From: Squalus acanthias
Lineage: Eukaryota
Assembly (NCBI GenBank): GCA_030390025.1
Contig: CM059432.1
Location: forward strand, 19,346,001 to 19,410,000
DNA: 64,000 nucleotides
Direction of reading: 5' to 3'
Part shown: piece by piece, positions 13,072 to 41,941 of the stretch
Numbering within the stretch: position 1 is the first letter of the stretch
How the letters are laid out: each line of letters starts with the position of its first letter
Position numbers and translations under genes: made by a program
Notes under the pieces: generated by a model
Told to the model about the DNA's origin: nothing
The model's database searches: none
Seen by the model: only the letters and a program-made list of their open reading frames with translations

Positions 13072-13807
13072 GGGCTGGATTTTGTCTTGGGGTCGGGCTG
13101 GGGTCGTGTCCTCCACATTTCGTGTTTTCCCCCCCCGACTCCAGATTAATGTGGATGAATGATGCAATTTTAACTTAATTGGGCAATTGAGTTCCAGCAT
13201 GTGGGAACCCATGAACCAATTAGTGGTTTCAGCCTGAAACCCATCTCTGATGATGTCATCATTGCTGACTGCCTGCTCTCAGAGATTGTCTGGCTGCTGG
13301 TGAGAGAGGACCTGCCTGGCTTTTGATGTGATTGTACCAGGATGCAAAATTGATATATATGAGAGAGAGAGAGACAGAGAGGAGACAGTCTCTGAACACA
13401 TTCAATGGAGCAGCATCAGAGGCGACTTTCAGGCCTAATACTACTACTACCTTCATCACATCTCCGTTGTAATAGTGGACCTGCAGCTCATAGTCAGCTA
13501 TCCACTTGTGCTCCCACCAGGTTTCACTGGAGTGTTTCACACCAGGCGTACTTCACATCAGAAAAGGGTTAAACTAGCTACAACGATTCAAAATAGCATT
13601 ACAGACCCAATTTAGGGCTTGTTAAGGGCTGTAATGGCCTCTCCCGCCTCTTGGAGGCGGGAGATAGTTGGGAACCCCGTGACTGATTTTGTCAAAATTG
13701 CGTGGAGGCGGGATGGAGTCGGGATGGGGTCGGAAACCCCGTCCCCGCAAATTTAACCCCCCACACGCCTCCAAACCCGACTTCATGGGTCATTCAAAAT
13801 CCAGCCC
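13072..13807. mobile_element. Nested Harbinger MITE
   Basis: TIRs GGGCTGGATTTT / AAAATCCAGCCC, flanks AAC/AAT. Confidence 0.75.
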
Positions 13808-13808
13808 A

Positions 13809-15720
13809 ATGACTTCTTCCAGAGGCAAGGCAGCTCCTCGTTTTAATGATGACTTCCTCCAAGTTCTTGTGGATGCTGTCAGAGGGCGCAGGAAGATTCT
13901 CTTCCCTCCTGATGGCCGGAAGAAGCCTCCTCAGCAGACCAAGGCAGCCTGGCTGCGCATTGCTGAGGAGGTCAGCACAAGGTCCATATATGCACGCTCA
14001 TGGATCCAGTGCCGAAAAAGGTTTAATGATCTTGTGCGAACATCAAAAGTGAGTATCCCATCTCACTTGCCTTCAATCTGCTTCCCTTCTCTTCTCATCA
14101 CCAGCACTCTACGTTCTAAGCCTCCTCCTTCACATCCCACCTTCCTCTTACTTCTCTTGCACCCTTACCTATCCATCTCTATCTCTGCACTGAATCACTT
14201 CAGCATCCTGCCTATGCACCCCTTAGACTTGCTCTCACTGTCATGCAATGACAACAACTAACAACGCACAGGGAGCTTCCTCTTGGCACCTTACCCCATC
14301 TTCGTCTCCCTCAAAGCTTCTATGGTAGGGATTATTGACCCTCACTCCATCACTGTGGCTGAAACACCGCTTGTTTCCCTCCTTGCTGGAAAAGATAGCC
14401 CACAATAAGAGGGAGAGAGCAATGACTGGAGGAGGAACACCTACCCTAGCCACATTGACCAGTGCTGAGGAAGCTGCATATCAGATTGTTGGTGGTGGCG
14501 AGGACCTGGATGTGGGCGATGGAGAGACGGGCACACTAGAGGAAGCTGGTGACATAATCACGTTTCATCCCTCTCAGAATGCAATGGCATATGATGTTCA
14601 TAGAGAATCGTGTTGTATCATCTGCTCAAAAGGATGTGTCAGCTACATCAATATCAGATGTCTAAATCATGCCTTTACCCTCACACAGGACAATCGAGCG
14701 CTCCCCTCCCCACTGTCCAGGATGAAGAGCCGGACAACTCCTCAGAGGAACCTGAAGTCTCTGAGAGAGCAGCATCATCAGGACTCAGCGCACCCAGCAC
14801 CAGCGCAGCAACGCACACCTCGGTGGGGCCCTCGCGAGTTAGCGTAGTTGCCACCTGGTCTATCACAGCGCACAAGTGAGCATCAGCAGATGGTGGAAAC
14901 AGCGACAGCAGTGGAGAGTCCTCTGTGGAGGTCGCAGGACTCTCTTAGCTCTGTTGAGCTGCATGCAGACGCTGTGCCTCTGGGGCCATCCAGAAAAAGA
15001 GCGTCTCGGGAAATATAGGAACAACTGCAAGTGTCTCTAGAAGGCTTTGCCTCCAGGGTTAGTGTGAGTGTGGAGAGAATGGAGGAGTCCATCTCTAACA
15101 TCAGCACTGCCGTGGTGGAGGCAATGGTGCATGACCGCACCACCATGGAATAGGATGGCAACCTCCGTGGAAAAGGATGGCTACCGCCATGGAGGAAATA
15201 CGTCACCAGAGTCAGAAAAACATGGTGACTGTTCAAAATAGAATGTCATCTCTGGAGGAGTGATGGGCAGCTATTGAGCAGAGAGACCAGAGCTTCATGG
15301 ATGTCCTTTTGCTGAGGACTGCCAGTGCAGATGTAGGTCCTCATGGTCCTCCTGAAGTGCAGCAAGGTGCTCTCCAGCCACTTGCTAGCACTGAGGTGCG
15401 GCTGACCCATGAGAGGGATGTTGTTGGCAGGACAGAAGGAAGTGTGGGCTCCTCTCAAAGCGCTCACACGACCATGCCACTGCGGAGCCCTCGGTCAGAG
15501 ACCCACTTTGCAGAGACAACTGAGATGGCCGTTTCAGCCCCTGCACAGCCGTAGGAAGAGCAGACTGTTGAAGAGCCCTCCCAAGCTCTCAAGCCCAGAG
15601 GATGTCCGCCAAAGGCGTCTAAGCAGGTGCAGCATCCTAGTCAGCAAGGTGCCTCTACATCTGCTGAAGCTACAGGGGAAGCACCACGTAGAAGTACATG
15701 TAAGAGAAAGATTAAGCACC
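13809..15720 (+). pseudogene. Spliced Harbinger Myb/SANT-like DNA-binding protein (disrupted)
   Basis: Exon 1 MTSSRGKAAPRFND...W..IAEEV...RSWIQCRKRFNDL followed by GTGAGT at 14049; exon 2 KIAHNKRERAMTGGG; later exon has stops. Confidence 0.8.
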
Positions 15721-16019
15721 TATCGTCACAAAGGGAGTCACTTGGGTGATTTATCTTTTTTTTCTGACTAGTTGTTGGTTTATTATCCTTTTGTGATGTG
15801 TAAAAGAAAAATTATGGCAAACAGTTGATTGTGTGGTCTATGTGTTCTGGGAAATGGTAAAAGCGCATTGAGGGCTCAGGGCGACTTGCTTTTGTAATGC
15901 TGATGGTAAAAGTGATAGGAAATAAGAGGGTATAGCAGAGATGATGTATGATGTTGGACAAGTGTTGCCTGCAATTACAGAGCCATATGGTAGCCACCTA
16001 TGGCTGAAGAGTAAGCTTA

Positions 16020-16460
16020 TGCTTATGTGGCATGGCAGTGTGCATACCCTGGTTGATGAGCAGCAGTGAACTGGAGGGATGCTACATTGGTCACAACAGG
16101 GCATGCAAGGCTCCCTTCGTCCTCCTCTTCCTCCTCTTCCCAGGAAGATCTGCGCTGAGCCATGTGGCTGCTACTCCTCCGATTATGAGGACCAGGGTGA
16201 GAGGGCATAAATTTTTCCCATCCCCTTGCTATAGATTTCATTTGAGGCAACAAGCTTGCAAGCGCACAGTCGAAGTGGGCTGAAATTATTCCATTCATGT
16301 CACACTGCAGATGGGTGTCAGCTTGAACAGTCACAAGGTCAGTAGATGTGCAAAATGTTATCCCATACCTACAACAGCAAAGTTGTTGCATTTGAATGTC
16401 AGCCATGTTTCAGGGGCACTTTTAAAGCGCTCCACCAATGCATACAAATCATGTCCTCCA
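16020..16460 (-). pseudogene. HARBI1-like transposase C-terminal remnant
   Basis: Cys-rich segment followed by acidic EEEEEEDE tail; homologous to 41100-41660. Confidence 0.55.
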
Positions 16461-17244
16461 ACAACTCGTCTCCTTGAACCTGCTCTGTTTCTGACAAGTC
16501 GGGAAACAGGAGCCAGAAGCACGAAAATGGGAAACCACTATGAAAATAGGATTAGCAAGGCAGTTAACAGGCTGTTAAATGTCTTAACTACCTGTCCCAC
16601 CGGTTCCAGACGGGTCAGTTTGGGAGCGGCTGAACAGACACTCACGAAAATCGGGTGGGGGCGGGATGGAGGCGGGTTGGGTGTCCGAAGCCATTTTTTC
16701 TGATTTTCGCTCTCAACCTGCCTCCAAACCCGCCTCCTCAGGGCTATTAAAATCGAGCCCTAGGACTCAGGGCTGGAGGGGCGGGAGATTGGGAAGAGGG
16801 AGATTGGGACTCGGAGGTTTGGGAGATTGGAACTTGGGGGGATAGGGGTCAAGTTAACTCCCAATATCAAGGCGATGGCGTAAAATGGGCACTATCGGAT
16901 CGACCGCCTGTTATACACCCTTCCCAATTTTCTTTTCCACTGCTAACCCCAAAGTGTGGAAGGTTTCCCGCCCCCCCCAAAAAAAAATGGAGGGGAATAA
17001 TAAACATCTATAGCTTTGCTTTATTTTGTTGTTTTCTCACAGGGTCACACACCAGAACTGAAAAGTGTGGCAGGTATTTTGCTGCCAATACCAACAAATG
17101 AGATTGCCAGTTTAGAAGCAGTTTTGTGCTGTGGGTCCATGCCCAATAGCACTGAATTAACAGTCCTTTCCTACAGGACCCTTTCAGCCAGAGTAGACTT
17201 GAATCTGGTCCCAGAGCTAAAGGAACATGTCTAACCCACTAATA

Positions 17245-28208: not shown

Positions 28209-28941
28209 TATGATTCTAACTCTGTTCACGGGATACGGGACAGGATCAATGGCAGGTCAAAGTGACAGGCAGAGGTCATCTGGCAGTATCATTCCACCGC
28301 CAGAATTTCTAAGCTTATTAGATTTTACACCTCCACTGCAGCCCTTAAACTGCAGTGTTCAATGTCCTACTTATAAATCTGACGAGAATGAAATATCAAA
28401 ATCTTTTACAACATACATAGCTTGTTCATTAAGGAGGAATCCTCAAGGGGCCAGTGTTTCCATGCCTTCTATCCCTACCTTTATATTCTTTGTTCTGTTG
28501 TGTTTGTTGATGGGATTCTATTAGCTTTAGAAATTTTTGTTACCCTATGGCACAAAGCGTTGAACAATTTGAATGAAAAATACAACTCAATTCAGTCATA
28601 GAAAGAGTGTTCAAGGTGACGGTGACAAAGCTGGATAGAAAAGACACTAAAGTTGAAGCCGAGATCGTTCGGGAGTAATGCTACTTTGCGGGTAGCCACC
28701 ACCAATCCACATTTTTCATTTTTAATTACATTATTGCACAATGACTAAAACATCAATTGAGCCAATTATTAGGGATAGAATCGATTAAATAACCCAAGGT
28801 ACCACTCTCTGTAATAGTATGAGCCATAAGTAGATGTGCTTTGTTGCATTTGAAGCATTTTTAAATCTCTCCTGCCCTGAGTGACTAATCATTTACAATA
28901 ACTCTTCCGTGCATTTTCAGCTCAGTGTGAAACGGTTGGGC

Positions 28942-30615
28942 TGTAAAGTTTCGCAATTATCGCGATTCGAAATAACGAGATAGAAGCAGATTCGTTTGAT
29001 CAGTTTATTTAAACAAAATGCTGTCATGATTAAACAGGACACAGAAGCCTGTAAAATGGCCGCCGCGCATCGTGGCAGAAGTTTCCAGAAGTACAGTGGG
29101 CAGACAAGATGGCGTTCGAATAAACATTTTCGATAAGCACTGATAAAGACAGGATGCAACCTGTTTGCAATTATGACAATAACAAAAGATATGAGTGCTG
29201 GAATCGTTTTCCATGCACAAGTAAGGACCATTGTACTGGGCAATCGAAGGCCCATCCAGACACATCAATACGCAAATACCCTCACGGCTCTACAATGAGA
29301 GAGCCATTCTCGGGTGATTAAACAAGTATTCGGGGGCCCCCAAAACCCAGCCAGGGAGGCTCCTAGCCGGTTCGACAATGGGAAAAACATTAACGGGTAG
29401 TTGGCCAGTCTCAGGTGCTACCGAAACCCGTTAAAGACAAGAATCACCCCATGCTGGGAGTTTTGAGCGCCAATATTTCACAAAGGACAAACATTAAGAT
29501 TTGGGCGGGAGATAAGGGAACACAGCACTATAACTATAGACAACAAATGTCCATCGCTCTCTTACTCCCTTGATTCGATTCTTATTCGCTTGATTCGTGC
29601 TCTTGTTTCTCTGGACTGTTGACTCTGGACTTTTAGCCGCACTGGACGGTTATTCGAATGTTGGGTGGAGCTCAAACGGAACGAGCCGCCTCAACGAAGG
29701 CCGGTAACCGGGTGCACCATCCCGAGTGTCGGTAAACGGTGTTCTGGACCCGAAGGCCCGAAGAGACGAGACGAGACGAGATGAGAAGAGAAGAAGAAGA
29801 ATCCACGTGCCGCCGCGGTCAGTAAACCCCGACCGCGCCGAATTTATACGAACTCTATCAGTTACTGCACGAACTGGTCATAGACTCTTCCTCGAATTTT
29901 ATCGACAACCGGTGTCGATACAGGAAGACTCTTCTTTGAATTCTACCGGTAACTGGTGTCGGTCCAGGAAGACTCTTCTTTGAGTTCTACAGCCGGGCCC
30001 GAGCACTGTCGAGTTCTTCATGACAACGGGGAGCCCAGCCTGCTTGCAGCAGCAGCGAAAGTAAACAAGTGGGGTACAGAGACCCCTCAAAACACGTGAC
30101 AGTCAGGCGCCGCAGCGAAACGAGCCGAGCGCCTCACTTTAAAATTCTCCGAAGTATCATGAGTGGTGAGCATGTTTCACTATCCTACAAATCTAGATGT
30201 AGTGTAGGTATTGATAGGGGAGGGTGGTTTTATTAAGGATAAAGTATAATGTGTTCCCCTTTTTACGATGTGCCGTGCGTTCTTCATTACCATAGACCAA
30301 GCTTTATGAATATATGTATACTTGTACTCTCGTTAATTTGTGCCTATGACATGTACTTCATGATTTTAGACACTATGCAATAAAGATTTCCATTTCGTAC
30401 TATTCAACCGGGTCTATTTGAGTTTTTCTCTGCATTATTGCTCTCGCACCTAAGTCCAGTGTTAGAACCGTAAGGGCGAGTGGGTCGAACCACTCACAGG
30501 TGCTTATTGCAACAAGGCTGGCCGGAGACCAGAGCAAGCAATAGTATTGGGCAACGAAGGCCTAACCCCGCACCAGCATCGTCTGCGATACAAGCATGAC
30601 ACAGAACCCCTTACA
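28942..30615 (+). repeat. 5' LTR
   Basis: Direct repeat of 37947-39620; AATAAA at 30379-30384. Confidence 0.95.
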
Positions 30616-30619
30616 GGAA

Positions 30620-32420
30620 ATGGCGACCACGAAGGGACACTGGCAGCGAGAGAGTAATGTTTTAGACCCTGGTGTGAATAGGCGAAATGTGATGGATGAG
30701 AGGGTAGCCGACTATGTGTTTGGGAAGGTTAACTTAACCAAAAGGTGGATAAGTGACCTACTGATGGATAAGCGTCCGCTAGACGCAGCCATCAAATGGA
30801 CAGGCAGTAAAGAGCATAAGAAGTCGGTGGAGAAAGCGGTCTGGCTGATGTGCTACAAGAAGCAGGTCCAACTTTCTGACCAGGTCATTGTAGCACAGGC
30901 AGCTCAGATCAGGGAATTGGAAGTTGAGATGGAGGAAAAGGTCACGGGAGGACAGAAACTCATTGCATCCTTGAATGCATTACATCAGGAACGCCAGATA
31001 GTAGCCAACCACCATGAGGCTAAAATTGATTACCTAGAGTGTCAGGTCACGGAAGCAAAGTTAAACGAGGGTAGGATTAGAGAACAGTGTGCCCGACTAT
31101 GCTAACCAGATAAAAGCCCAGGAAGAAAGCTTGAAGGGAGTTAGGGCGGCATATAAGATGGCCCTCGAGGATAGGCATGAGGGAGCCGACCACAGTGTTT
31201 GCCAGAAGGAGATAGGGAACCTAAGAGAGGCCCTGAATAAGGCAAACGGCATGGTGTGCCTCATCAGCCCGTCAGCAAACCAGCTACAGGTGGGTGGGGA
31301 ATTCCCAAAATCCCTACCAGACAAAGCAGAGGAGGTATTTGCCACTGCGCCCTCCACGCCACCCAGCTATACGGCAACCTGGGTAAGGGAGGAAGTGGTG
31401 GAAATAGAGAAGGAGGTTCCCGAGGTAGGACAATCCCCAGAGGTAGAGTCGAAACCGGGACCGATGTGTCCGCTCCGAGGTCACAAGAGAGGCCCGAATG
31501 GGGAAAATGGGGAGGACGGGGATGTCCTGAACCAGCTTGTATTGCCTCACAGCTCACACCAGCTGAGAGCAATGATTAGCCATGTACGGAAGCTGTCCGA
31601 ATCAGACGACCCTTCCGTACACTTTAGGGAGGTAGAACAGACCGCAGCAATTAATGGCTGCGACGATGTGGAAAAGACCAAAATGTTGCTGTTCTCGTTA
31701 GATAGCTCGATCCTTCAGTGTCTCTCAGACGAGAGCAAGAGGGGAAATAAAACCTATGAGGAGTTAAGGGACGAGGTCCTAGAAGTGTTAGGGGCGGATG
31801 ACGAAGGTCCGTTCGTCAGATTGAGTCAAACCCTGCAGATGGAGGGAGAACCCCTGAAGGTTTTCGCCGACAGGCTGTGGCCAGTATACCAGCGTAGCTG
31901 CCCAGGTGCGCCAGCGCGCCACCACCTGGACGGTGCCGGTTTAACTCATTGGCTTAGGTGTTTAGTAGCCAACAGTTTGCCAGCCGTCAGGGAGCAGGCC
32001 AAAGCGTGGTTTGATCCCACTAACCCCGCCACAACAGAGGAGTCGGTCCTAAATCGACTCACGATAGGGTATCGGAACACTAGGAGCACGGGAGCGTGTC
32101 CCCTTAAGGGAAAGGTGCGTGAGGCACGGCCCGCAGCCCCGGCTCAAAAGGAGTGGCATCAGGAGGGAAACCGCGCCCCACAAGCCAGTGGTGCTTGTTA
32201 CGGGTGCGGGAAGACAGGTCACTGGCGTAAGAACTGTAGGAACCCCTGGAATGACTCCAGGGATAAAAATCCCGCAGCCCGAACCCAAGCGCCTGTCTCT
32301 GAGAGAAGAGCTGGTGTGCCTATCCATCCCGACGCGATCGAATCAATGTTAGGAGCCATGCGGTCTCTTATGATTTTGCACGGGGAGGTAGCAACAGCCC
32401 CATACAACCCAGACTTCTGA
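30620..32420 (+). CDS. gag: Gag polyprotein with a 1-nt frameshift near 31100
   Basis: ORFs 30596-31105 and 31089-32420; coiled coil, PPSY (31359-70), capsid-like QMEGEPLKVFADRL, CX2CX4HX4C knuckle (32196-32237). Confidence 0.85.
30621..30638 (+). promoter_or_regulatory. Primer binding site, tRNA-Arg(TCG)
   Basis: TGGCGACCACGAAGGGAC is complementary to ...GTCCCTTCGTGGTCG-CCA, the 3' end of a vertebrate tRNA-Arg(TCG) as recalled. Confidence 0.85.
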
Positions 32421-33500
32421 CTGGAACCGGTGCAGCCTGCCTACCTGTGTCCCCTTGAAAGACACGCACAGGAGGGGGTCTCCTGTAAGGAGGCCAGGTT
32501 AAAAGAGCAGGCCTTACGGGAGGAGAACGCCCGCTTAATGGGGAAAATAGATGGGCTAGAAGGGCAGCTTAGAGACATAAAGGCAGCCTACAGGGTAGCC
32601 AGGAGCAGGGAGTATGAGGATTTAAACCATGGGAGAAATCTGCAGCCTCCAGCAGGCGAGATTTCACAGAAGGCACAAGCAGGGGCGGTGGCCTGTCATA
32701 GGGGAGGGGCCAAACCTGCGAGTGGGGACTCTCAGCCCCGGGTAGGACCGCAGGGCACACAGACCGGTAAAGCAGCCTGCGTGAGGGGAGAGGACATTCT
32801 ATAAAAGTGTAGGATCTTTTCTTGGTGTTGGGATTCAGATGAGGAAGAGCTCGAGGAGCTCGACCAAGGTAGTGACCCGATCGGAGAGGTGCTGGGGTCG
32901 GAGGACGGAAGTTTCGTCCTCGACTCAAGCTCAGGGGAGATAGGGGCTGCGAGTGGAAATCCACACAGGGTGGAATCAGAAACTGCAGATCCCGAGCCCA
33001 GGGGGGCGGAGCTAGGGGAGACGGAGCCAGCGACTGTGGTAGGACCACAGGTCGTGACGGTGGAAGTCTCGATACCCGGTCCGTCGGCCCTGGAAGTCTT
33101 GCCCTTGGGGGAGGTAGGGATTGCGAGTGGAGGACCACATACTGGGCCAAGTAGGGTGGAACCAGAAGCTGCAAATCCCGAGTTCAGGGAGGCGGAGCCA
33201 GGGGAGACGGAGCCAGCGGCTGTGGTGGGACCACAGGCTGTGACGGTGGAAGTCTTGGTCCCTGGTCCGTCGGCCCTGGAAATCTTGCCCAATGTAGCCC
33301 TCCGTAGGTCAAGTCGGACACCCCAGCCCAGGAAGCCGTGGTCAAGTCCCCCGTACGCCCCCAGGCGTAAGTTCAAGGTCAAGGCAGCCCAGGGAGATCC
33401 CAGTCCCAGCGCAGCAGCGACAGGCTGCGGCAGATCAAAGGAAGGGGTCAGTGCCCTCCCACCACTGGGAAAAGCTCGTGGCAGCCTTCACAGAATTTAG
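32421..33500 (+). CDS. ORF-X, in frame with gag after TGA; one internal TAA (32802-04); non-enzymatic
   Basis: ORFs 32430-32804 and 32889-33500 share a frame and the gap between them is open; no D(T/S)G, YxDD or DDE motifs. Confidence 0.6.
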
Positions 33501-33767
33501 GTAGGCCGCCCTGGGAACGGGCGGCGCTGTACAGTATAAGTTTATAAGTTTATAAGTTTAAGTTTGTAAGTTTTGTAAGTTTGTAGTTTAATTTTAAAAG
33601 TAAATGGTAAAGTGATGGGAGTTTTAGTGATAGGAATTGAAAGTCTATCCAGCATACATGTCTTTTTACGTGAGACGAGGTCAAGGGACCCGCTCACCCT
33701 TCACAAAAGCCAGAGACTCTTGGGAGGCTGGCTATATCATTTTATCTGATCACAGGAACCAGGAAAG

Positions 33768-34913
33768 ATGGAAAGGATTCTGATAGTGCTCGCAACGATC
33801 GGATATGGATTGGCCTATCGGGGCCTCACCAAGGATGTCGTTGTGTTTGGTTGCTCCGGGGACACGGCCCCCATCGCGACGGATGGGACCGGGGAGCGAA
33901 AGGCTGAGGAGACCGCCACTTATTTCCACAAGGGAAGGTGGCCGGGATGGCTGGGAACAAATTCAACGGAATACTCCAGCGCATCCGGATTTGCTTACAA
34001 AGAGACTTCTTTACTGTGCCCCAGAGTGAGGATCATTGCACCCAGAATCAGCGTCACCGTCGGCAAAAGGATTTGTTTGACATGCAATGGGAAGGTCCCA
34101 ATGAGCCGATGGTGGTGGTTACGGAAGTTAAGCAAGACTATGAGAAATTCCTCGGTTGAGTGGGAGCGATTGGGTAACAATACCCATCGGACAATTACGG
34201 GGACTAACGGACAATTGAAAGTCTGTTGGGACAAATGGTGGGAACTGGATGAGGGAATATATGTTTGTATGTGGGGGTCGAAGTACGTTTGCCCCAAGGG
34301 TATATCCATATTTTTCGTACACCAGTGGCAGGATAACGGGAAAGGGATGAGGTGGGATGTCAGCACAAAGGGGTGCGGAGCTCCATTCACCCCGATCCCG
34401 GTAAACGCCACTGAACTCATCACACGCCCACGCAAGTCTCCGCCCACGATTCCGGTGGTTTTGGCTCAGGAGGAAGGGTGCCCTAAAACCACTAAGGGGC
34501 CCGGGAATGGTTTGGTACTGGTCCCAACAGACCAGATACTATTTCAAGGGGTACATTACGCGGTGGCTTCGGTGATTCTAAATCTCACCAAGATGCATTT
34601 ACCAGAGTGGTGTCCCAAAGAGACGGAACAATTGTACCAGGTCCTGTTGACAAACATGTTCAGACAATTCTACGAGTTTGATTTTGCAGAGATTGACAAA
34701 ACAAGCTTGTACACCACACCACACGAAGTTTTGGGTCAGGTGGGGAGACAGAGAAGGGGCATTGTGAACGATATGTTCACCGCCTTTAATACAGGAACAT
34801 CTGTGGTCAACGCTCTAGACAACGTGGAGCTGCAGACCCAGATCAATGTTTTAAAAACACAATTAAAAAGCATCCTCACAAGCGAAAACAAGGTAGTAGG
34901 GTCTGAGTTACAT
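33768..34913 (+). CDS. env: Env 5' part: signal peptide, Ig-like domain, furin site, fusion peptide, start of heptad repeat
   Basis: MERILIVLATIGYGLA; C...W...DEGIYVC; RQRR|GIVNDMFTAFNTGTSVVN; acceptor ttttatctgatcacag at 33740-55. Confidence 0.85.
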
Positions 34914-36349
34914 GAAACATAGAAACATAGAAACATAGAAAATAGGTACAGGAGTAGACCATTCGGTCCTTCGAGCCTGCACCGCCATTCAATGCGTTCA
35001 TGGCTGAACATGCTACCTCAGTACCCCATTCCTGCTTTCTCGCCATACCCCTTGATCCCCCTAGTTGTGAGTGTTATATCTAACTCCCTTTTGAATATAT
35101 TTAGCGAACTGGCCTCAACAACCTTCTGTGGAAGAGAATTCCATAGATTCACCACTCTCTGGGTGAAGAAGTTCCTCCTCAGTTCAGTCTTAAATGGCTT
35201 CCCCTTAATCCTTAGACTGTGACCCCTGGTTCTAGTTTTCCCTAACATTGGGAACATTCTGCCCACATCTAATTTGTCTAAACCAGTCAGGATTTTAAAT
35301 GTCTCTATAAGATCCCCCCTCATTCTTCTGAACTCCAGAGGATACAAGTTCAGTTGACCCAATCTTTCTTGATATGTCAGTCCGGCCATCCCAGGAATCA
35401 ATCTAGTGAACCTTCGCTGCACTCCCTCAATAGCAAGAATGTCCTTCCTTAAGTTAGGAGACCAAAACTGCGCACAATACTCCAGGTGTGGCCTCACCAA
35501 GGCCCTGTACAACTGCAGCATCACCTCCCTACTCCTGTACTCAAATCCCCTTGCTATGAAGGCCATCATTCCGTTTGCTTTCTTGACTGCCTGCTGCACT
35601 TGCATTCCCACCTTCAGTGACTGATGTACCATGACGCCCAGGTCTCGTTGCACCTCCCCTTTCCCTAATCTGCTACCATTCAGGTAATAGTCCGCCTCTC
35701 TATTTTTACCACCAAAGTGGATAACCTCACATTTATCCACATTGTACTTCATCTGCCATACATTTGCCCATTCACCCAACCTGTCCAAGTCACTCTGTAG
35801 CCTCCTAGCATCCTCCTCATTGTTCACACTGCCTCCCAATTTAGTGTCATCCGCAAATTTGGAGATATTACATTTAATCCCTTCGTCCAAATCATTAATA
35901 TATAATGTAAACAGCTGGGGTCCCAGCACCGAACCCTGCGGTACCCCGCTGGTCACTGCCTGCCATTCTGAAAAGTACCCATTTACTCCTACTCTTTGTT
36001 TCCTGTGTGCCAACCAGTTCTCAATCCACGTCAACACATTACCCCCAATCCCATGTGCTTTAACTTTGCTCACCAATCTCTTGTGTGGGACCTTGTCGAA
36101 GGCCTTCTGAAAGTCCAAATACACCACATCTACTGGTTCCCCCCTGTCCACCCTATTGGAAACATCCTCAAAAAATTCCAGAAGATTTGTCAAGCATGAT
36201 TTCCCTTTCACAAATCCATGCTGACTTGGACCTATCATGTCGCCACTTTCCAAATGGTCTGTTATGACATCTTTAATAATTGCTTCCATCATTTTACCCA
36301 CGACCGATGTCAGGCTGACCGGTCTATAATTCCCTGCTTTCTCCCTCCG
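34914..36349 (-). mobile_element. 5'-truncated CR1 LINE inserted antisense in env
   Basis: Intact 427-aa RT ORF (35018-36301; YLDFQKAFD, GVPQGSVLGP, KFADD); (TTTCTATG)n tail at 34914-34940. Confidence 0.95.
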
Positions 36350-37552
36350 GACCAGGCCATGACACTACACTTAAAAGAAATTATAGCAGAGCTGGAAAAG
36401 CATGCGAGAATGGTAAATGCCCTGATTAGGGAAGATCGGAATGCATCCGATCAAGCTGCGCAGAACAAGGTGTGCGTACTATACGGGGCGTGGTTACTGG
36501 GTGAGGGCCGCAGTAATTTGGAGGATTTAAAACAAGGTTTGGTCCCGTCCTGGATAAGTAACAAACACCTGCAGGCGCTCCACCCTTTTCAGAACGCATT
36601 AAGCCCGTGCCAGCTCAGGCTAGCCTCAGAGGCATACCCAGTCCCCGTGGACTGCGGACGGTCAAACCATACCATCATGGGTATAGTACTACGTATGCCG
36701 GTTTTGGGCGACACAGCAAAGCCCGCCCCGGTGTATCGGGTAGAGAACATTGGTGTCATTCAGGGGGGAGCCCACATTCGCTACGCAGCAGTCCCACCTT
36801 ACGTCATCCGCTGGGAGCAAACGATGACAGGTACCGACCTATCGGGTTGTCGTGGCCGGGGAGCACACATCATCCTGTGTCCCCAGCACTTGAATGCCTT
36901 TTTAACACCACAATGCGGGTTCAGAACGGCTGGCGCGAAGCCCATGAATTGCACCATGGAGGCAATGACCCAAGATCATGTGCCTCCGCAGGTGGCATAC
37001 ATAGGGGGTGGAACATATTGCGTTACCACTGCAGCGCAACACTACCAGCATGGAAACCACAGCCGGTGTCCGGTGAGTGACAGCAGTTTCTGTTTTAAAC
37101 CCAGGGCTGAAGTTCCAGTGGCACAACAGCGAATTGTCCCGATCCCTGAACCATCCACTGTTCACCTTACAGTAAAAGAGAATTTCACCGACTTGCAGCG
37201 ATTCATCGCGCATTTCAGATACATCATTCCCCCTCTCCCTGAACACCTCACCAAGCTTTTGAAAGCCATCATGGTATCACAGAAACATTTTTACACCCTG
37301 GAACAAAAGACTGTAGAAATAGGGACAGAAATTTTGGACATAGTAGTCCCACCGTGGTGGGACCTGTTCACCAATATTGAAGTTCCTTCATGGATCAGGA
37401 TAGCCTCCCACATTTTGGTTGTGTGCCAAGTAGTGATTGTAGTGTACCTACTGGTCGTACACTGCAAAAGAGGCAAACGCCTCACAAAGCAGGAGAACAC
37501 AGGAGAGTGGAGAGAACGTTACATGCGCGTGAACGAGGAAAGTACCGCGTAA
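36350..37552 (+). CDS. env: Env 3' part: heptad repeat, Cys-rich domain, TM anchor, cytoplasmic tail
   Basis: DQAMTLHLKEIIAEL...; many Cys; TM IASHILVVCQVVIVVYLLVV followed by a basic tail; rejoins the 5' part in frame. Confidence 0.85.
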   Translation, partial: DQAMTLHLKEIIAELEKHARMVNALIREDRNASDQAAQNKVCVLYGAWLLGEGRSNLEDLKQGLVPSWISNKHLQALHPFQNALSPCQLRLASEAYPVPVDCGRSNHTIMGIVLRMPVLGDTAKPAPVYRVENIGVIQGGAHIRYAAVPPYVIRWEQTMTGTDLSGCRGRGAHIILCPQHLNAFLTPQCGFRTAGAKPMNCTMEAMTQDHVPPQVAYIGGGTYCVTTAAQHYQHGNHSRCPVSDSSFCFKPRAEVPVAQQRIVPIPEPSTVHLTVKENFTDLQRFIAHFRYIIPPLPEHLTKLLKAIMVSQKHFYTLEQKTVEIGTEILDIVVPPWWDLFTNIEVPSWIRIASHILVVCQVVIVVYLLVVHCKRGKRLTKQENTGEWRERYMRVNEESTA

Positions 37553-37934
37553 ACGGCCAGGATGACACCGCTCCATTTTACCATGTGTGTTTTTGTAATT
37601 GATTGTTAGTTATGAAGATGTGTAACTAAGTTTGGAACTTTGTATTTTTAAAATGGTTGTTTGATTATTTTTCCTTGTATAATAAAAACGTGCATATACA
37701 GGTGGTGCGAGAGGCATCGGCCTGTTGCACCTGGAAGACGTATACGCAATGTAAGTTTAAAGGCAATACTGCCTACGTTTTGTCCAAGGCCAAGCAATGT
37801 AATTTCCCTGGGAAATGAGGACGGCATGGAGGCCATAGATAGTTTAAGTTAAGGGAGTGTTTGGATGTGGAGAATCGGGATAATTTTGCTCACCACCACA
37901 TTTAATTGATACGATAAGCGGAGTTATTCGCATC

Positions 37935-37946
37935 AACAGGAGGGAC
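37935..37946 (+). promoter_or_regulatory. Polypurine tract
   Basis: AACAGGAGGGAC immediately before the 3' LTR. Confidence 0.75.
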
Positions 37947-39620
37947 TGTAAAGTTTCGCAATTATCGCGATTCGAAATAATGAGATAGAAGCAGATTCGT
38001 TTGATCAGTTTATTTAAACGAAATGCTGTCATGATTAAACAGGACACAGAAGCCTGTAAAATGGCCGCCGCGCATCGTGGCAGAAGTTTCCAGAAGTACA
38101 GTGGGCAGACAAGATGGCGTTCGAATAAACATTTTCGATAAGCACTGATAAAGACAGGATGCAACCTGTTTGCATTTGTGACAATAACAAAAGATATGAG
38201 TGCTGGAATCGTTTTCCATGCACAAGTAAAGACCATTGTACTGGGCAATCGAAGACCCATCCAGACACATCAATACGCAAATACCCTCACGGCTCTACAA
38301 TGAGAGAGCCATTCTCGGGTGATTAAACAAGTATTCGGGGGCCCCCAAAACCCAGCCAGGGAGGCTCCGAGCCGGTTCGACAATGGGAAAAACATTAACG
38401 GGTAGTTGGCCAGTCTCAGGTGCTACCGAAACCCGTTAAAGACAAGAATCACCCCATGCTGGGAGTTTTGAGCGCCAATATTTCACAAAGGACAAACATT
38501 AAGATTTGGGCGGGAGATAAGGGAACACAGCACTATAACTATAGACAACAGATGTCCATCGCTCTCTTACTCCCTTGATTCGATTCTTATTCGCTTGATT
38601 CGTGCTCTTGTTTCTCTGGACTGTTGACTCTGGACTTTTAGCCGCACTGGACGGTTATTCGAATGTTGGGTGGAGCTCAAACGGAACGAGCCGCCTCGAC
38701 GAAGGCCGGTAACCGGGTGCACCATCCCGAGTGTCGGTAAACGGTGTTCTGGACCCGAAGGCCCGAAGAGACGAGACGAGACGAGATGAGAAGCGAAGAA
38801 GAAGAATCCACGTGCCGCCGCGGTCAGTAAACCCCGACCGCGCCGAATTTATACGAACTCTATCAGTTACTGCACGAACTGGTCATAGACTCTTCCTTGA
38901 ATTTTATCGACAACCGGTGTCGATACAGGAAGACTCTTCTTTGAATTCTACCGGTAACTGGTGTCGGTCCAGGAAGACTCTTCTTTGAGTTCTACAGCCG
39001 GGCCCGAGCACTGGCGAGTTCTTCATGACAACGGGGAGCCCAGCCTGCTTGCAGCAGCAGCGAAAGTAAACAAGTGGGGTACAGAGACCCCTCAAAACAC
39101 ATGACAGTCAGGCGCCGCAGCGAAACGAGCCGAGCGCCTCACTTTAAAATTCTCCGAAGTATCACGACTGGTGAGCATGTTTCCCGATCCTACAAATCTA
39201 GATGTAGTGTAGGTATTGATAGGGGAGGGTGGTTTTATTAAGGATAAAGTATAATGTGTTCCCCTTTTTACGATGTGCCGTGCGTTCTTCATTACCATAG
39301 ACCAAGCTTTATGAATATATGTATACTTGTACTCTCGTTAATTTGTGCCTATGACATGTACTTCATGATTTTAGACACTATGCAATAAAGATTTCCATTT
39401 CGTACTATTCAACCAGGTCTATTTGAGTTTTTCTCTGCATTATTGCTCTCGCACCTAAGTCCAGTGTTAGAACCGTAAGGGCGAGTGGGTCGAACCACTC
39501 ACAGGTGCTTATTGCAACAAGGCTGGCCGGAGACCAGAGCAAGCAATAGTATTGGGCAACGAAGGCCTAACCCCGCACCAGCACCGTCTGTGATACAAGC
39601 ACGACACAGAACCCCTTACA
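37947..39620 (+). repeat. 3' LTR
   Basis: About 21 substitutions relative to the 5' LTR by eye, with no indels. Confidence 0.95.
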
Positions 39621-40260
39621 GGGCTATGCACAACTATAAGGAGTCATTAACATTTACTGTGAATGCAATCTAAGAGAGACTTCAGGATTTGAAAGCAATA
39701 TGCGATTTTTAAAATCTAACTGCAGTGATTATGTCACAGAGTTGACTTAAAAGAAAAAAGAAAAATATTCAGAAATGGAAATTGCCCTCTTCATTCAATT
39801 GCATGCTAGAAGGGAAAACAGGTATTACACGTGTCTATTAAGGGATAATGGGGATTATTTTGGTCTATTTTTCGCTGGGACCTCTTAATCTCACATTTGA
39901 ACCGCTCCAATCAGGTTTCCACCCCTGCCACAGCACTGAAACGGCGTTATCAAAGTCACAAATGATGTTAAATTATCCCTCCTCATTCTTCTCGACCTGC
40001 CTGTAGCCTTTGACAGCGTTGACCATGCCATCCTCCTCCAAGGCTTTTCCTCCGTTGTCCAGCCGAGTGGGAGTGCCCTCGCCTGGTTCCATTCTTATCT
40101 TTCCAGTCGCAGCCAAAGAAACTTCCGCAATGGCTTCTCCTCCCGTTCCCGCACCATTACGTTTGGAGTCCACCGAGGATCTATCCTTGTCCCCCTCCTA
40201 TATCTTGTCTGCATGCTGCCCCTTGGCGACATCATCCGAAAACAAAGCATCAGATTCCAT

Positions 40261-41941
40261 GGGCTCGATTTCAATAATGGATGCGGGTTGAGGACGGGAC
40301 CGCTGCTCAGCAGCTTTCGGACCCACACCCGGCTACCACCTCCCAGCACTTCATTGGCCTCGTTACGGCCGACGTGCGGGTCCCTCCAGGCAATTGCTTG
40401 CAGGATGTCAGTTTCTCGCGTCTGATGACGCATTGTTTGTTTGAAAATTTAAAGAGGCCATGTCCCCTTCGCATACAAATGACATTGGGATGGATTGGTG
40501 CTTTATTATCTTGAAAGGGGAGTTGACAGCGTCTGTTCTGAGCAAAATTTAACGAATGATATTGCTGGTCATATTATTCCAGAAAGAGATTCATGATTTT
40601 TTGATATATGACTTTATTATCTGACTATGAAATGAAAAAGATGCCAGATGTGTTCCAATCATTTGCTTAGTAATATTAATGCTTTTTTCTCTTAAAGGTG
40701 CTGGCTGCTGCAGGAATGGCAGCCCCAAAAACTAAGGCTGCACCCAGGTTCAATGAGGGCTCCCTCCATGCTCTTGTTAAGGGAGTTAGAGGACGTCAGG
40801 AGCTCCTCTTCCCTGGAAACGGAAGGAGGAGGCCTCCTCAGCAAACCAAGGCAGCTTGGCTGCAAATTGCTGAGGAGGTGAGCTCGAGGTCTGTGTGCAG
40901 ACGCACATGGGTTTAGTGTCGAAAAAGGTTTAATGATCTGCTGAGATCATCTAACGTGTGGCCTCTGTGTTCTGGGACATGGAAGTTCAAGATTGAGGGC
41001 TCAGGGCGATTTCCATGTAGAATGTTGGTGGTGACACTGAGCACAAACCACCATTTATTGGACAGATGATGCCTGGGGTTTGAGACTGTCGGACTTATAT
41101 TCATCTCCATGTGCCAGCCACCTGTGGTTGAAGCGTTAGCTTACGCGAATCAGGCATGGGTGAGTGCATCCCTTGCCTGACGGCCATCAATGTGGTCGCC
41201 TGCTGCTGGATTGGCCACATCCGGCCCCGCAAGGCGTCGCTCCCCGTCCTCCTACTCATCCTCCTCGTCGTCCTCTTCCTCGTCCTCTTCATCTTCATCT
41301 TCCTCCAAGGGGGCTGTATGCTGAGCCACTTGTTCATCCAGCAGCACTAAGCCGCGCTGCTCTTCCTCCGAATCTGACGACCAGGATGAGAGGAAGTAAA
41401 TGGTTCCCATCCCATTGTTATAGATTTCAGTTGAGGCAAGAAGCTTGCAAGCGCACACTCAAATGGCCTGAAATTATTTCAATCAGTTCAAACAGCAGAC
41501 GTGTGTCAGCTTGACCAGTCACAAGGTCAGTAGATTTGCAAAATCTTATCCTAAAACTCCAACAACAAAGTTGTTGCATATGAATGCCAGCCATGTTACA
41601 GGAGTGCTTTTAAAGTTCTGCACCAATAATGTCTACAGATCATGTCCTCCACCAACTCGTCTCCTTGCAGCTGGACTGTTTCTGTCAAGACGGGAAACAG
41701 GAGCCAGAAGTGTGAAAATGGGAAACCTCTATCAAAATAGGATTATCAAGGCAGTTAACAGGCTCTTAACTGCCTTACCTACCTGCCCCACCGGTAGGAG
41801 TCGGGTCAGTTTGGGAGCAGCTGACCCAACACTCACGAAAATCGCGTGGGGGGCGGGTTGGGTGTCTGAAGCTATTTTTTCCGATTTTCGCAGTTGACCC
41901 GCCTCCAAACCCGCCTCCTCAGGGCTATTAAAATCGAGGCC
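40261..41941. mobile_element. Internally deleted Harbinger, same family as 12821-16760
   Basis: TIR GGGCTCGATTTCAATA / TATTAAAATCGAGGCC; Myb exon 40717-40955 with a TAG; transposase remnant on -. Confidence 0.8.

Follow-up and report, generated by a model that had tools for sequence, protein, structure and literature searches.

The non-autonomous mouse intracisternal A-particle (IAP) element IΔ1 is internally deleted, carries an in-frame gag-pol fusion open reading frame (ORF) and is mobilised in trans by full-length siblings; according to the review that treats it (PMC6466679), the fusion promotes retrotransposition in cis. Here we describe a comparable endogenous retrovirus (ERV) of the shark Squalus acanthias, located in a stretch of 64,000 nucleotides (contig CM059432.1, positions 19,346,001 to 19,410,000; hereafter the window). 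It has gag and env and lacks all pol enzymes. We show that this provirus is defective. It represents a pol-less form present in high copy number, which carries a shared cassette in the place of pol and very probably depends on pol-bearing helpers and recombines with them.

IAP elements have no env, and part of gag is missing from IΔ1, whereas the shark family retains a whole, constrained gag and env, has lost all enzymes and holds a probably foreign Gag fragment in the gap. In bovine ERVK[2-1-LTR] D-type elements, koala recKoRV and mouse ETn/MusD, as described in PMC10924933, a central segment is likewise replaced by a piece of another retroelement, the flanking gag and env sequence is kept, and competent siblings complement these elements in trans and recombine with them. 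The D-type elements are presented there as having no intact ORFs, in contrast to the many pol-less shark copies in which gag, X and env are open and gag and env constrained. Zebrafish BHIKHARI (Bik-1/2) and chicken ENS-1 are young pol-less ERVs that occur in multiple copies, encode an intact coiled-coil Gag and need a partner for pol; by the account in PMC12067270, however, Bik-2 encodes neither pol nor env, Bik-1 is a single ORF, a helper was not found in the zebrafish reference, and Bik is classed as a lokiretrovirus. In the defective ERVs known so far, env is usually lost or the genes are left to decay; here an enzyme-less form keeps constrained gag and env beside its helpers. In a literature search with Repbase and subscription journals outside its reach, we found no published pol-less ERV family that keeps gag and env in cartilaginous fish. 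The family thus offers a data set for asking if retroviruses that are not autonomous live as mere parasites or supply proteins of their own, and in what way they are sustained by recombining with helpers.

Results

The pol-less layout is found at many sites

Between gag and env the provirus carries a frame, ORF X, whose central filler stands where protease, reverse transcriptase (RT), RNase H plus integrase would be expected. A Pfam scan found none of these four families in the two frame pieces between gag and env or in the ORF X frames sampled from other copies, in agreement with the first-pass annotation of the window, while the same scan run on a sibling pol as a control detected all of them. 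With the internal region as query, a DNA search returned at least 39 matches, 92–97% identical and spread over 35 places (of 7,304 candidates, the best 36 were scored). At 35/35 of these best places the gag/X junction and the filler are the same, with env behind wherever the fetched stretch was long enough. Among 16 pol-less loci with both long terminal repeats (LTRs) measured, 11 have 4-bp target-site duplications (TSDs), 10 of them different; in three the flanks enter a tandem unit and in two they are mismatched. Loci left out are L015 (a duplicate of L013) from all sets, L020 from the gag codon sets, the tandem L024 from the LTR-age tally, and three loci without a detected junction.

Marker 20-mers extended this to the whole genome. 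The window-type junction has 214 matches, and the filler was present in 20/20 that were evenly picked; the sibling-type junction has 1,678, and of 20 picked along chromosome C1 half (10) contain a full pol and the other 10 the same filler. With 1,174 exact matches for the filler 20-mer against 2,087 for the RT 20-mer, and 0 for control 20-mers, about one third of the family is therefore pol-less, in a total of more than 3,000 proviruses in one genome. These counts are lower bounds in which tandem units and duplications are included; the filler marker occurs in 65/73 sampled copies and the RT marker in 23/23. The data support the pol-less layout as a multi-copy replicating form. The first-pass annotation had proposed looking for copies with the same junctions and distinct TSDs, and these exist; a single post-integration deletion, the outcome it had set against its own proposal, is not what is found, the cassette being present at many distinct sites.

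Contigs bridging the cassette junctions also occur in sequencing runs labelled as other organisms (the stub-filler junction in X9, X11 and X12, the filler-tail junction in X9 and X11), which suggests that the cassette is probably not confined to Squalus acanthias.

Pol-bearing siblings carry matching signals

An autonomous partner with matching cis signals, active over the same period, is present in the genome. Of 40 env matches whose upstream sequence was examined, 13 have gag, full-length pol spacing and env. The helper Pol consists of protease, RT (with YVDD), tether, RNase H and integrase; its RNase H is dual (PF17919/PF17917 at 470–602 and PF00075 at 650–792), and pol lies in frame behind the gag TGA, as ORF X does in the pol-less copies. 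Helpers and pol-less copies have in common the LTR ends, a 5-nt spacer, the types of primer-binding site (PBS) and the polypurine tract (PPT). Helper LTRs are 76–89% identical to the window LTR, and the median LTR-LTR divergence is 0.009 for pol-less (n=15) and 0.012 for pol-bearing copies (n=6). For each of the two main PBS types there are matching host tRNA-Arg(TCG) genes (437 pattern matches, with tRNA-Arg in 3/3 loci tested).

The gag ATG overlaps the PBS (window 30616–30640), and PBS variants in both forms, surveyed in loci L001–L035, L076–L088 and L129–L148, change Gag residues 4–6. Two of the variants fit different host tRNA-Arg(TCG) genes, and a third common one is unmatched among the matches listed. 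Long tandem arrays of a 1,623-bp unit with tRNA-Arg(TCG) lie at G000:C26:38.99–41.88 Mb (L171–L174), with a tRNA-Ser adjoining in L171.

ORF X consists mostly of a Pol tail

In the window's type ORF X has 359 codons, and it is open in 52/73 sampled copies. It maps to residues 1–12 and 1233–1496 of the sibling Pol only: the first 11–12 residues correspond to the beginning of Pol, and the final 264 to its tail downstream of integrase, at 76% amino-acid identity. The filler between them is homologous to the Gag coiled coil (39% amino-acid identity over 69 residues; 54.7–57.8 bits versus a maximum of 25.4 in 200 shuffles), and its longest version also shows a capsid-start-like motif. No DNA match was found between the filler and the family's own gag, which points to a fragment of the Gag of another, related retrovirus. 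A search for the donor found none: four members of a second family of this genome share only 37–40% of amino acids with the filler, with no DNA match and no closer than the family's own Gag, and a homolog search with the filler retained 0/159 candidates at E<=1 (lengths 222–709 only). A novel or captured host gene was rejected as the identity of ORF X, and the organised ORF that the first-pass annotation had seen in the pol slot turned out to be mostly a leftover Pol tail plus a piece of Gag, with unclear constraint on its amino acids.

One filler is common to all pol-less copies sampled, and it is 93–95% identical between subfamilies whose gag is only ~78% identical. Its length variants (69, 75 and 138 nt) keep the frame, and in the 21/73 copies with a non-open X the first stops fall mostly at different codons. 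An indel tally against one reference has 18/47 shared classes in frame, many of them being alignment splits of compound junctions.

In two contigs from other runs (records 13 and 19) the filler stands behind unrelated sequence. The second related family (different Gag; Pol 76–86% identical) also has a pol-deleted form, in 2/4 copies fetched (L213 and L216; G000:C2:89189400-89192900 and C3853:6400-9900). There Pol residues 1–90 are joined to ~779, leaving an open frame of 311–364 codons behind the gag stop. This in-frame deletion is independent of the filler cassette, and the pol-less state may therefore recur.

gag and env are under purifying selection

A single open gag frame of ~600 codons is found in 36/73 sampled copies, and an uninterrupted env has 783 codons. 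From the LTR mutation spectrum, the neutral expectation for the ratio of nonsynonymous to synonymous substitution rates (dN/dS) is 0.63–0.88 overall, 0.66–0.69 for gag and env and 0.88 for the filler. Pairwise values in the two pol-less subfamilies are 0.22 (n=8) and 0.13 (n=6) for env and 0.33 (n=19) and 0.27 (n=7) for gag, beside 0.14 and 0.25, respectively, in pol-bearing copies. In env, the corresponding polymorphism ratio (pN/pS) is 0.07–0.10 for shared variants versus 0.24–0.48 for singletons. The gag and env genes of pol-less copies are thus shown to be under purifying selection. No such pattern is clear for ORF X. Its tail evolves at a dN/dS of 0.74, the same tail in helpers at 0.82 (n=7; RT to integrase 0.12), and shared variants of the filler have a pN/pS of 0.65, which does not differ significantly from that of singletons or from the neutral value (p=0.15 versus neutral). 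The comparison across copies that the first-pass annotation had called for therefore comes out positive for gag and env and without clear constraint for ORF X, where it is probably the openness of the frame that is maintained and not the residues.

Private shared gag variants, absent from 20 pol-bearing copies, were considered separately. In subfamily A their pN/pS is 0.37 versus 0.75 for singletons (p=0.002). That selection acts on the pol-less genomes' own Gag and Env is a question on which we regard the chances as about evenly balanced.

Pol-less copies are not one clade

In a gag tree of 20 pol-less and 20 pol-bearing copies the label changes six times and monophyly of the pol-less copies is rejected (approximately unbiased (AU) test, p=3e-43). 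It is rejected as well in a tree of the 3′ part of env with 20 pol-less and 13 pol-bearing copies (AU p=3e-33), and the closest env neighbour of the window copy by identity (97%) is pol-bearing. The first-pass annotation had envisaged a lineage stable without pol, an idea that these trees do not support. The pol-less label is still clustered in the gag tree (0/500 shuffles as low), and pol-less sub-lineages therefore persist for a while. An eight-copy pol-less clade in env has its own pol-bearing relatives missing from the sample and is for this reason seen as a sampling effect. With a single cassette on many gag and env backgrounds, recombination in mixed particles appears to be the best explanation; most likely, judging from these sequences, one pol-deleted cassette moves among backgrounds by recombination with helpers.

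Discussion

How the pol-less form may be maintained

The first-pass annotation had proposed an element using Pol supplied in trans, and the multi-copy form together with a helper with matching signals appears to bear this out. In the mechanism that we propose, pol-less RNA would be packaged together with helper Gag-Pol, tRNA-Arg(UCG) would prime its reverse transcription and helper integrase would integrate the product. Template switching in the mixed particles could then carry the cassette onto new gag and env backgrounds. The gag stop lies in the context UGA-CUG or UGA-CUA, which is leaky for read-through, and read-through may yield a fusion of Gag with X in the position of the helper's Gag-Pol; Env would be made from a spliced RNA. 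Pol is needed in small amounts only, and because of this a genome that is shorter but still encodes Gag and Env might favour its own packaging and spread. The function of gag and env would likely be preserved in two ways: helpers replenish the genes, and some selection acts on what the pol-less genomes themselves produce.

A further step would be a population with division of labour, in which selection favours enzyme-less genomes as suppliers of Gag, Env and read-through Gag-X, enzyme-bearing genomes supply Pol, and the captured Gag coiled coil acts in cis on assembly or packaging. The cassette would then behave as a recombining 'allele' at about one third of copies, across several hosts and possibly over tens of millions of years (My). 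We consider this extension speculative and rather unlikely.

Several points weigh against a helper-dependent form that moves its cassette by recombination and keeps its genes in part for its own use. The interleaving of labels could come partly from gene conversion between proviruses and not from template switching. Trans-complementation, co-packaging, read-through and splicing are deduced from structure and from precedent, which for trans-complementation is described in PMC10924933, PMC6466679 and PMC12067270. The dN/dS sets hold naturally open frames only (gag 35/73, env 25, X 52/73), and the selection sample is small and partly biased by similarity. All three frames are open in only 5/38 sampled pol-less copies. 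The private shared gag variants of subfamily B have a pN/pS of 0.47 versus 0.40 for singletons (p=0.71), so that the picture is mixed between subfamilies. Finally, the filler core has a pairwise dN/dS of 0.40 versus a neutral 0.88, and ORF X may matter more than we suppose.

Some of these points would suit a pure RNA parasite, which needs nothing except its cis signals, leaves gag, env and X unused and owes the conservation of gag and env solely to import from helpers. In its favour, the pol-less copies are non-monophyletic in gag and env, the Pol tail evolves alike in both forms, and the private variants of subfamily B show no extra constraint; bovine D-type elements are moreover described as thriving with broken genes (PMC10924933). 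However, the private gag variants of subfamily A are constrained, the first stops in broken X copies are mostly at different codons, the length variants of the filler stay in frame, and versions of the cassette without env or without gag are absent from our samples. On balance we regard pure parasitism as possible, though somewhat unlikely. The opposite view, an independent satellite in which a long-lived pol-less virus with its own gag and env and a functional new ORF X borrows only enzymes, could draw on the single filler of all pol-less copies, found also in runs of other labelled organisms, on subclades of the gag tree that hold pol-less copies only and have supported inner branches, and on the low pairwise dN/dS of the filler. 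It is largely refuted by the AU tests on both genes, and it fits poorly with a window env that is closest by identity to a pol-bearing copy, with an ORF X that is three quarters Pol tail, and with a filler far more uniform between subfamilies than gag, as for a mobile cassette; we hold it to be very improbable.

It seems hardly credible that a single post-integration deletion was merely multiplied by segmental duplication or tandem amplification. Some copies do lie in tandem arrays or have a common TSD (L013/L015; units on C3 and C1), yet 10 different TSDs in 11 loci, each locus with its own LTR pair, more than 1,000 dispersed copies on both strands and a foreign filler at the junction all speak against it. 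Helper dependence combined with a recombining cassette accounts for these observations best in our judgement.

Classification of the helper family

The best full-length relatives of the helper Pol are frog, bird and unnamed Pol proteins with a dual RNase H, and the nearest named relative of the family's Gag is a skate Gag (59%). In an RT tree of 44 rows the helper falls inside Retroviridae (100/99) in an unresolved basal group, with frog proteins as the nearest rows (80/82). It shares the polytomy with a likely snakehead retrovirus (SnRV) contig, outside the foamy clade and outside the clades that we take, partly by length, to be gamma-like and delta-like. This contig, a 10,688-nt genome, is the helper's only viral-contig match (Pol 32% over 786 amino acids, Env profile E=8e-8, Gag weak at E=0.007). 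Its length equals that given for SnRV in PMC12193657, and the contig is therefore taken to be SnRV. With SnRV and its ERV kin (clade Huo, PMC6001957; shark lineage I, PMC4422223) the helper shares, going by this contig, gag, a stop and pol in one frame and a homologous Env; differences are the weak Gag match, the stop codon and the LTR, which is much longer in the helper's family. The helper family likely belongs to an SnRV-like grade, as far as these comparisons indicate, and would add a large, well-preserved member from a poorly sampled vertebrate class.

Lokiretroviruses, as characterised in PMC7947760, are similar in their gag-pol-env order, dual RNase H and an Env with an RXXR site unlike gamma-type Env. 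The dual RNase H is common to all retroviruses and thus not diagnostic. Membership was rejected, since the helper RT does not contain the Loki motif given in the supplement of PMC7947760 and stands in Retroviridae (100/99) apart from the only two Loki references in the tree, proteins labelled by that motif.

For Env, PF00523 (Mononegavirales F) had no match in 35/35 aligned members, the 3′ half of env searched by itself had 0 matches in the PDB, and an Atlas search with Env gave only leads <0.9. A profile search returned foamy Env at E=0.008 and F0 at E=1.4, and these weak matches give at best a faint hint of the fusion-protein class.

Anatomy of the window provirus

The features of the copy in the window are collected in Table 1. 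The first-pass annotation had described its LTRs, TSD, 18-nt PBS and PPT correctly, and its estimate by eye of about 21 differences between the LTRs proved exact: 14 transitions (9 at CpG) and 7 transversions in a gapless alignment, with a Kimura two-parameter distance of 0.0127. The 5-nt spacer separates the 5′ LTR from the PBS. The LTRs show no CpG depletion, in contrast to the flanking DNA with an observed/expected ratio of 0.44–0.47.

Table 1. Features of the pol-less provirus of Squalus acanthias in the window (o/e, observed/expected; LINE, long interspersed nuclear element)
Feature	Position	Strand	Remarks
Provirus	28942..39620	+	pol-less ERV copy, Squalus acanthias
TSD left, GGGC	28938..28941	+	sequence comparison of flanks
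5′ LTR	28942..30615	+	1674 bp, TGT..ACA, CpG o/e 0.98
PBS, complementary to host tRNA-Arg(TCG)	30621..30638	+	overlaps gag ATG at 30620
gag	30620..32420	+	N-terminal coiled coil, capsid region, one CCHC knuckle, TGA stop
ORF X part 1, first 11–12 pol codons	32421..32454	+	in frame 3′ of gag stop
ORF X part 2, filler in place of protease-RT-RNase H-integrase	32455..32705	+	homologous to Gag coiled coil
ORF X part 3, low-complexity C-terminal Pol tail	32706..33500	+	186-bp internal repeat
env 5′ part	33768..34915	+	signal peptide, weak Ig-like segment, RQRR cleavage site, fusion-peptide-like stretch; read from translation
CR1-type LINE, 5′-truncated	34916..36348	-	inside env; inserted after provirus integration
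env 3′ part	36349..37552	+	cysteine-rich ectodomain, transmembrane segment, short tail
PPT	37935..37946	+	identical in pol-bearing siblings
3′ LTR	37947..39620	+	1674 bp
TSD right, GGGC	39621..39624	+	sequence comparison of flanks

The copy is dead: near 31,100 gag breaks into two frames, a stop occupies codon 128 of ORF X (32802–32804), and a LINE interrupts env. This insertion had been missed when gag and env were first described as essentially complete. The LINE measures 1,433 bp and has a 448-amino-acid open RT frame (RVT_1 E=2e-34), a microsatellite 3′ tail and no target duplication. Its bounds were set from 3/4 uninterrupted env copies compared, and it is present at this env site in 0/35 best-matching copies.

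The integration had been called young, which is true only as regards the low LTR divergence; this corresponds to ~29 My with the shark rate assumed in PMC4422223 or to ~9 million generations with the epaulette-shark rate in PMC10587355. Five of the 21 differences are clustered within 22 bases (30160–30181), so some of them may not be clock-like.

The Ig-like segment of env (window 34044–34270, residues ~92–167) matches an immunoglobulin domain weakly (Ig_3 E=0.13, and E=0.0085 for one relative). A different interspersed repeat is present twice, at 13715–16760 and 40734–41941 of the window, on either side of the provirus; the two copies lie ~25–27 kb apart and show 74–89% identity. Elsewhere in the genome, LTR length among copies varies from ~1.35 to 1.75 kb with constant ends. 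Head-to-tail proviral arrays with common LTRs comprise six pol-less units of 6.4 kb, three units of 11 kb and three of 7.7 kb (sites G000:C3:64.28–64.32 Mb; C3234:241–266 kb; C1:143.65–143.68 Mb). At L019:6866-8420 and in L064 a diverged family member, solo-LTR-like or an inverted partial copy, is nested in other copies of the family.

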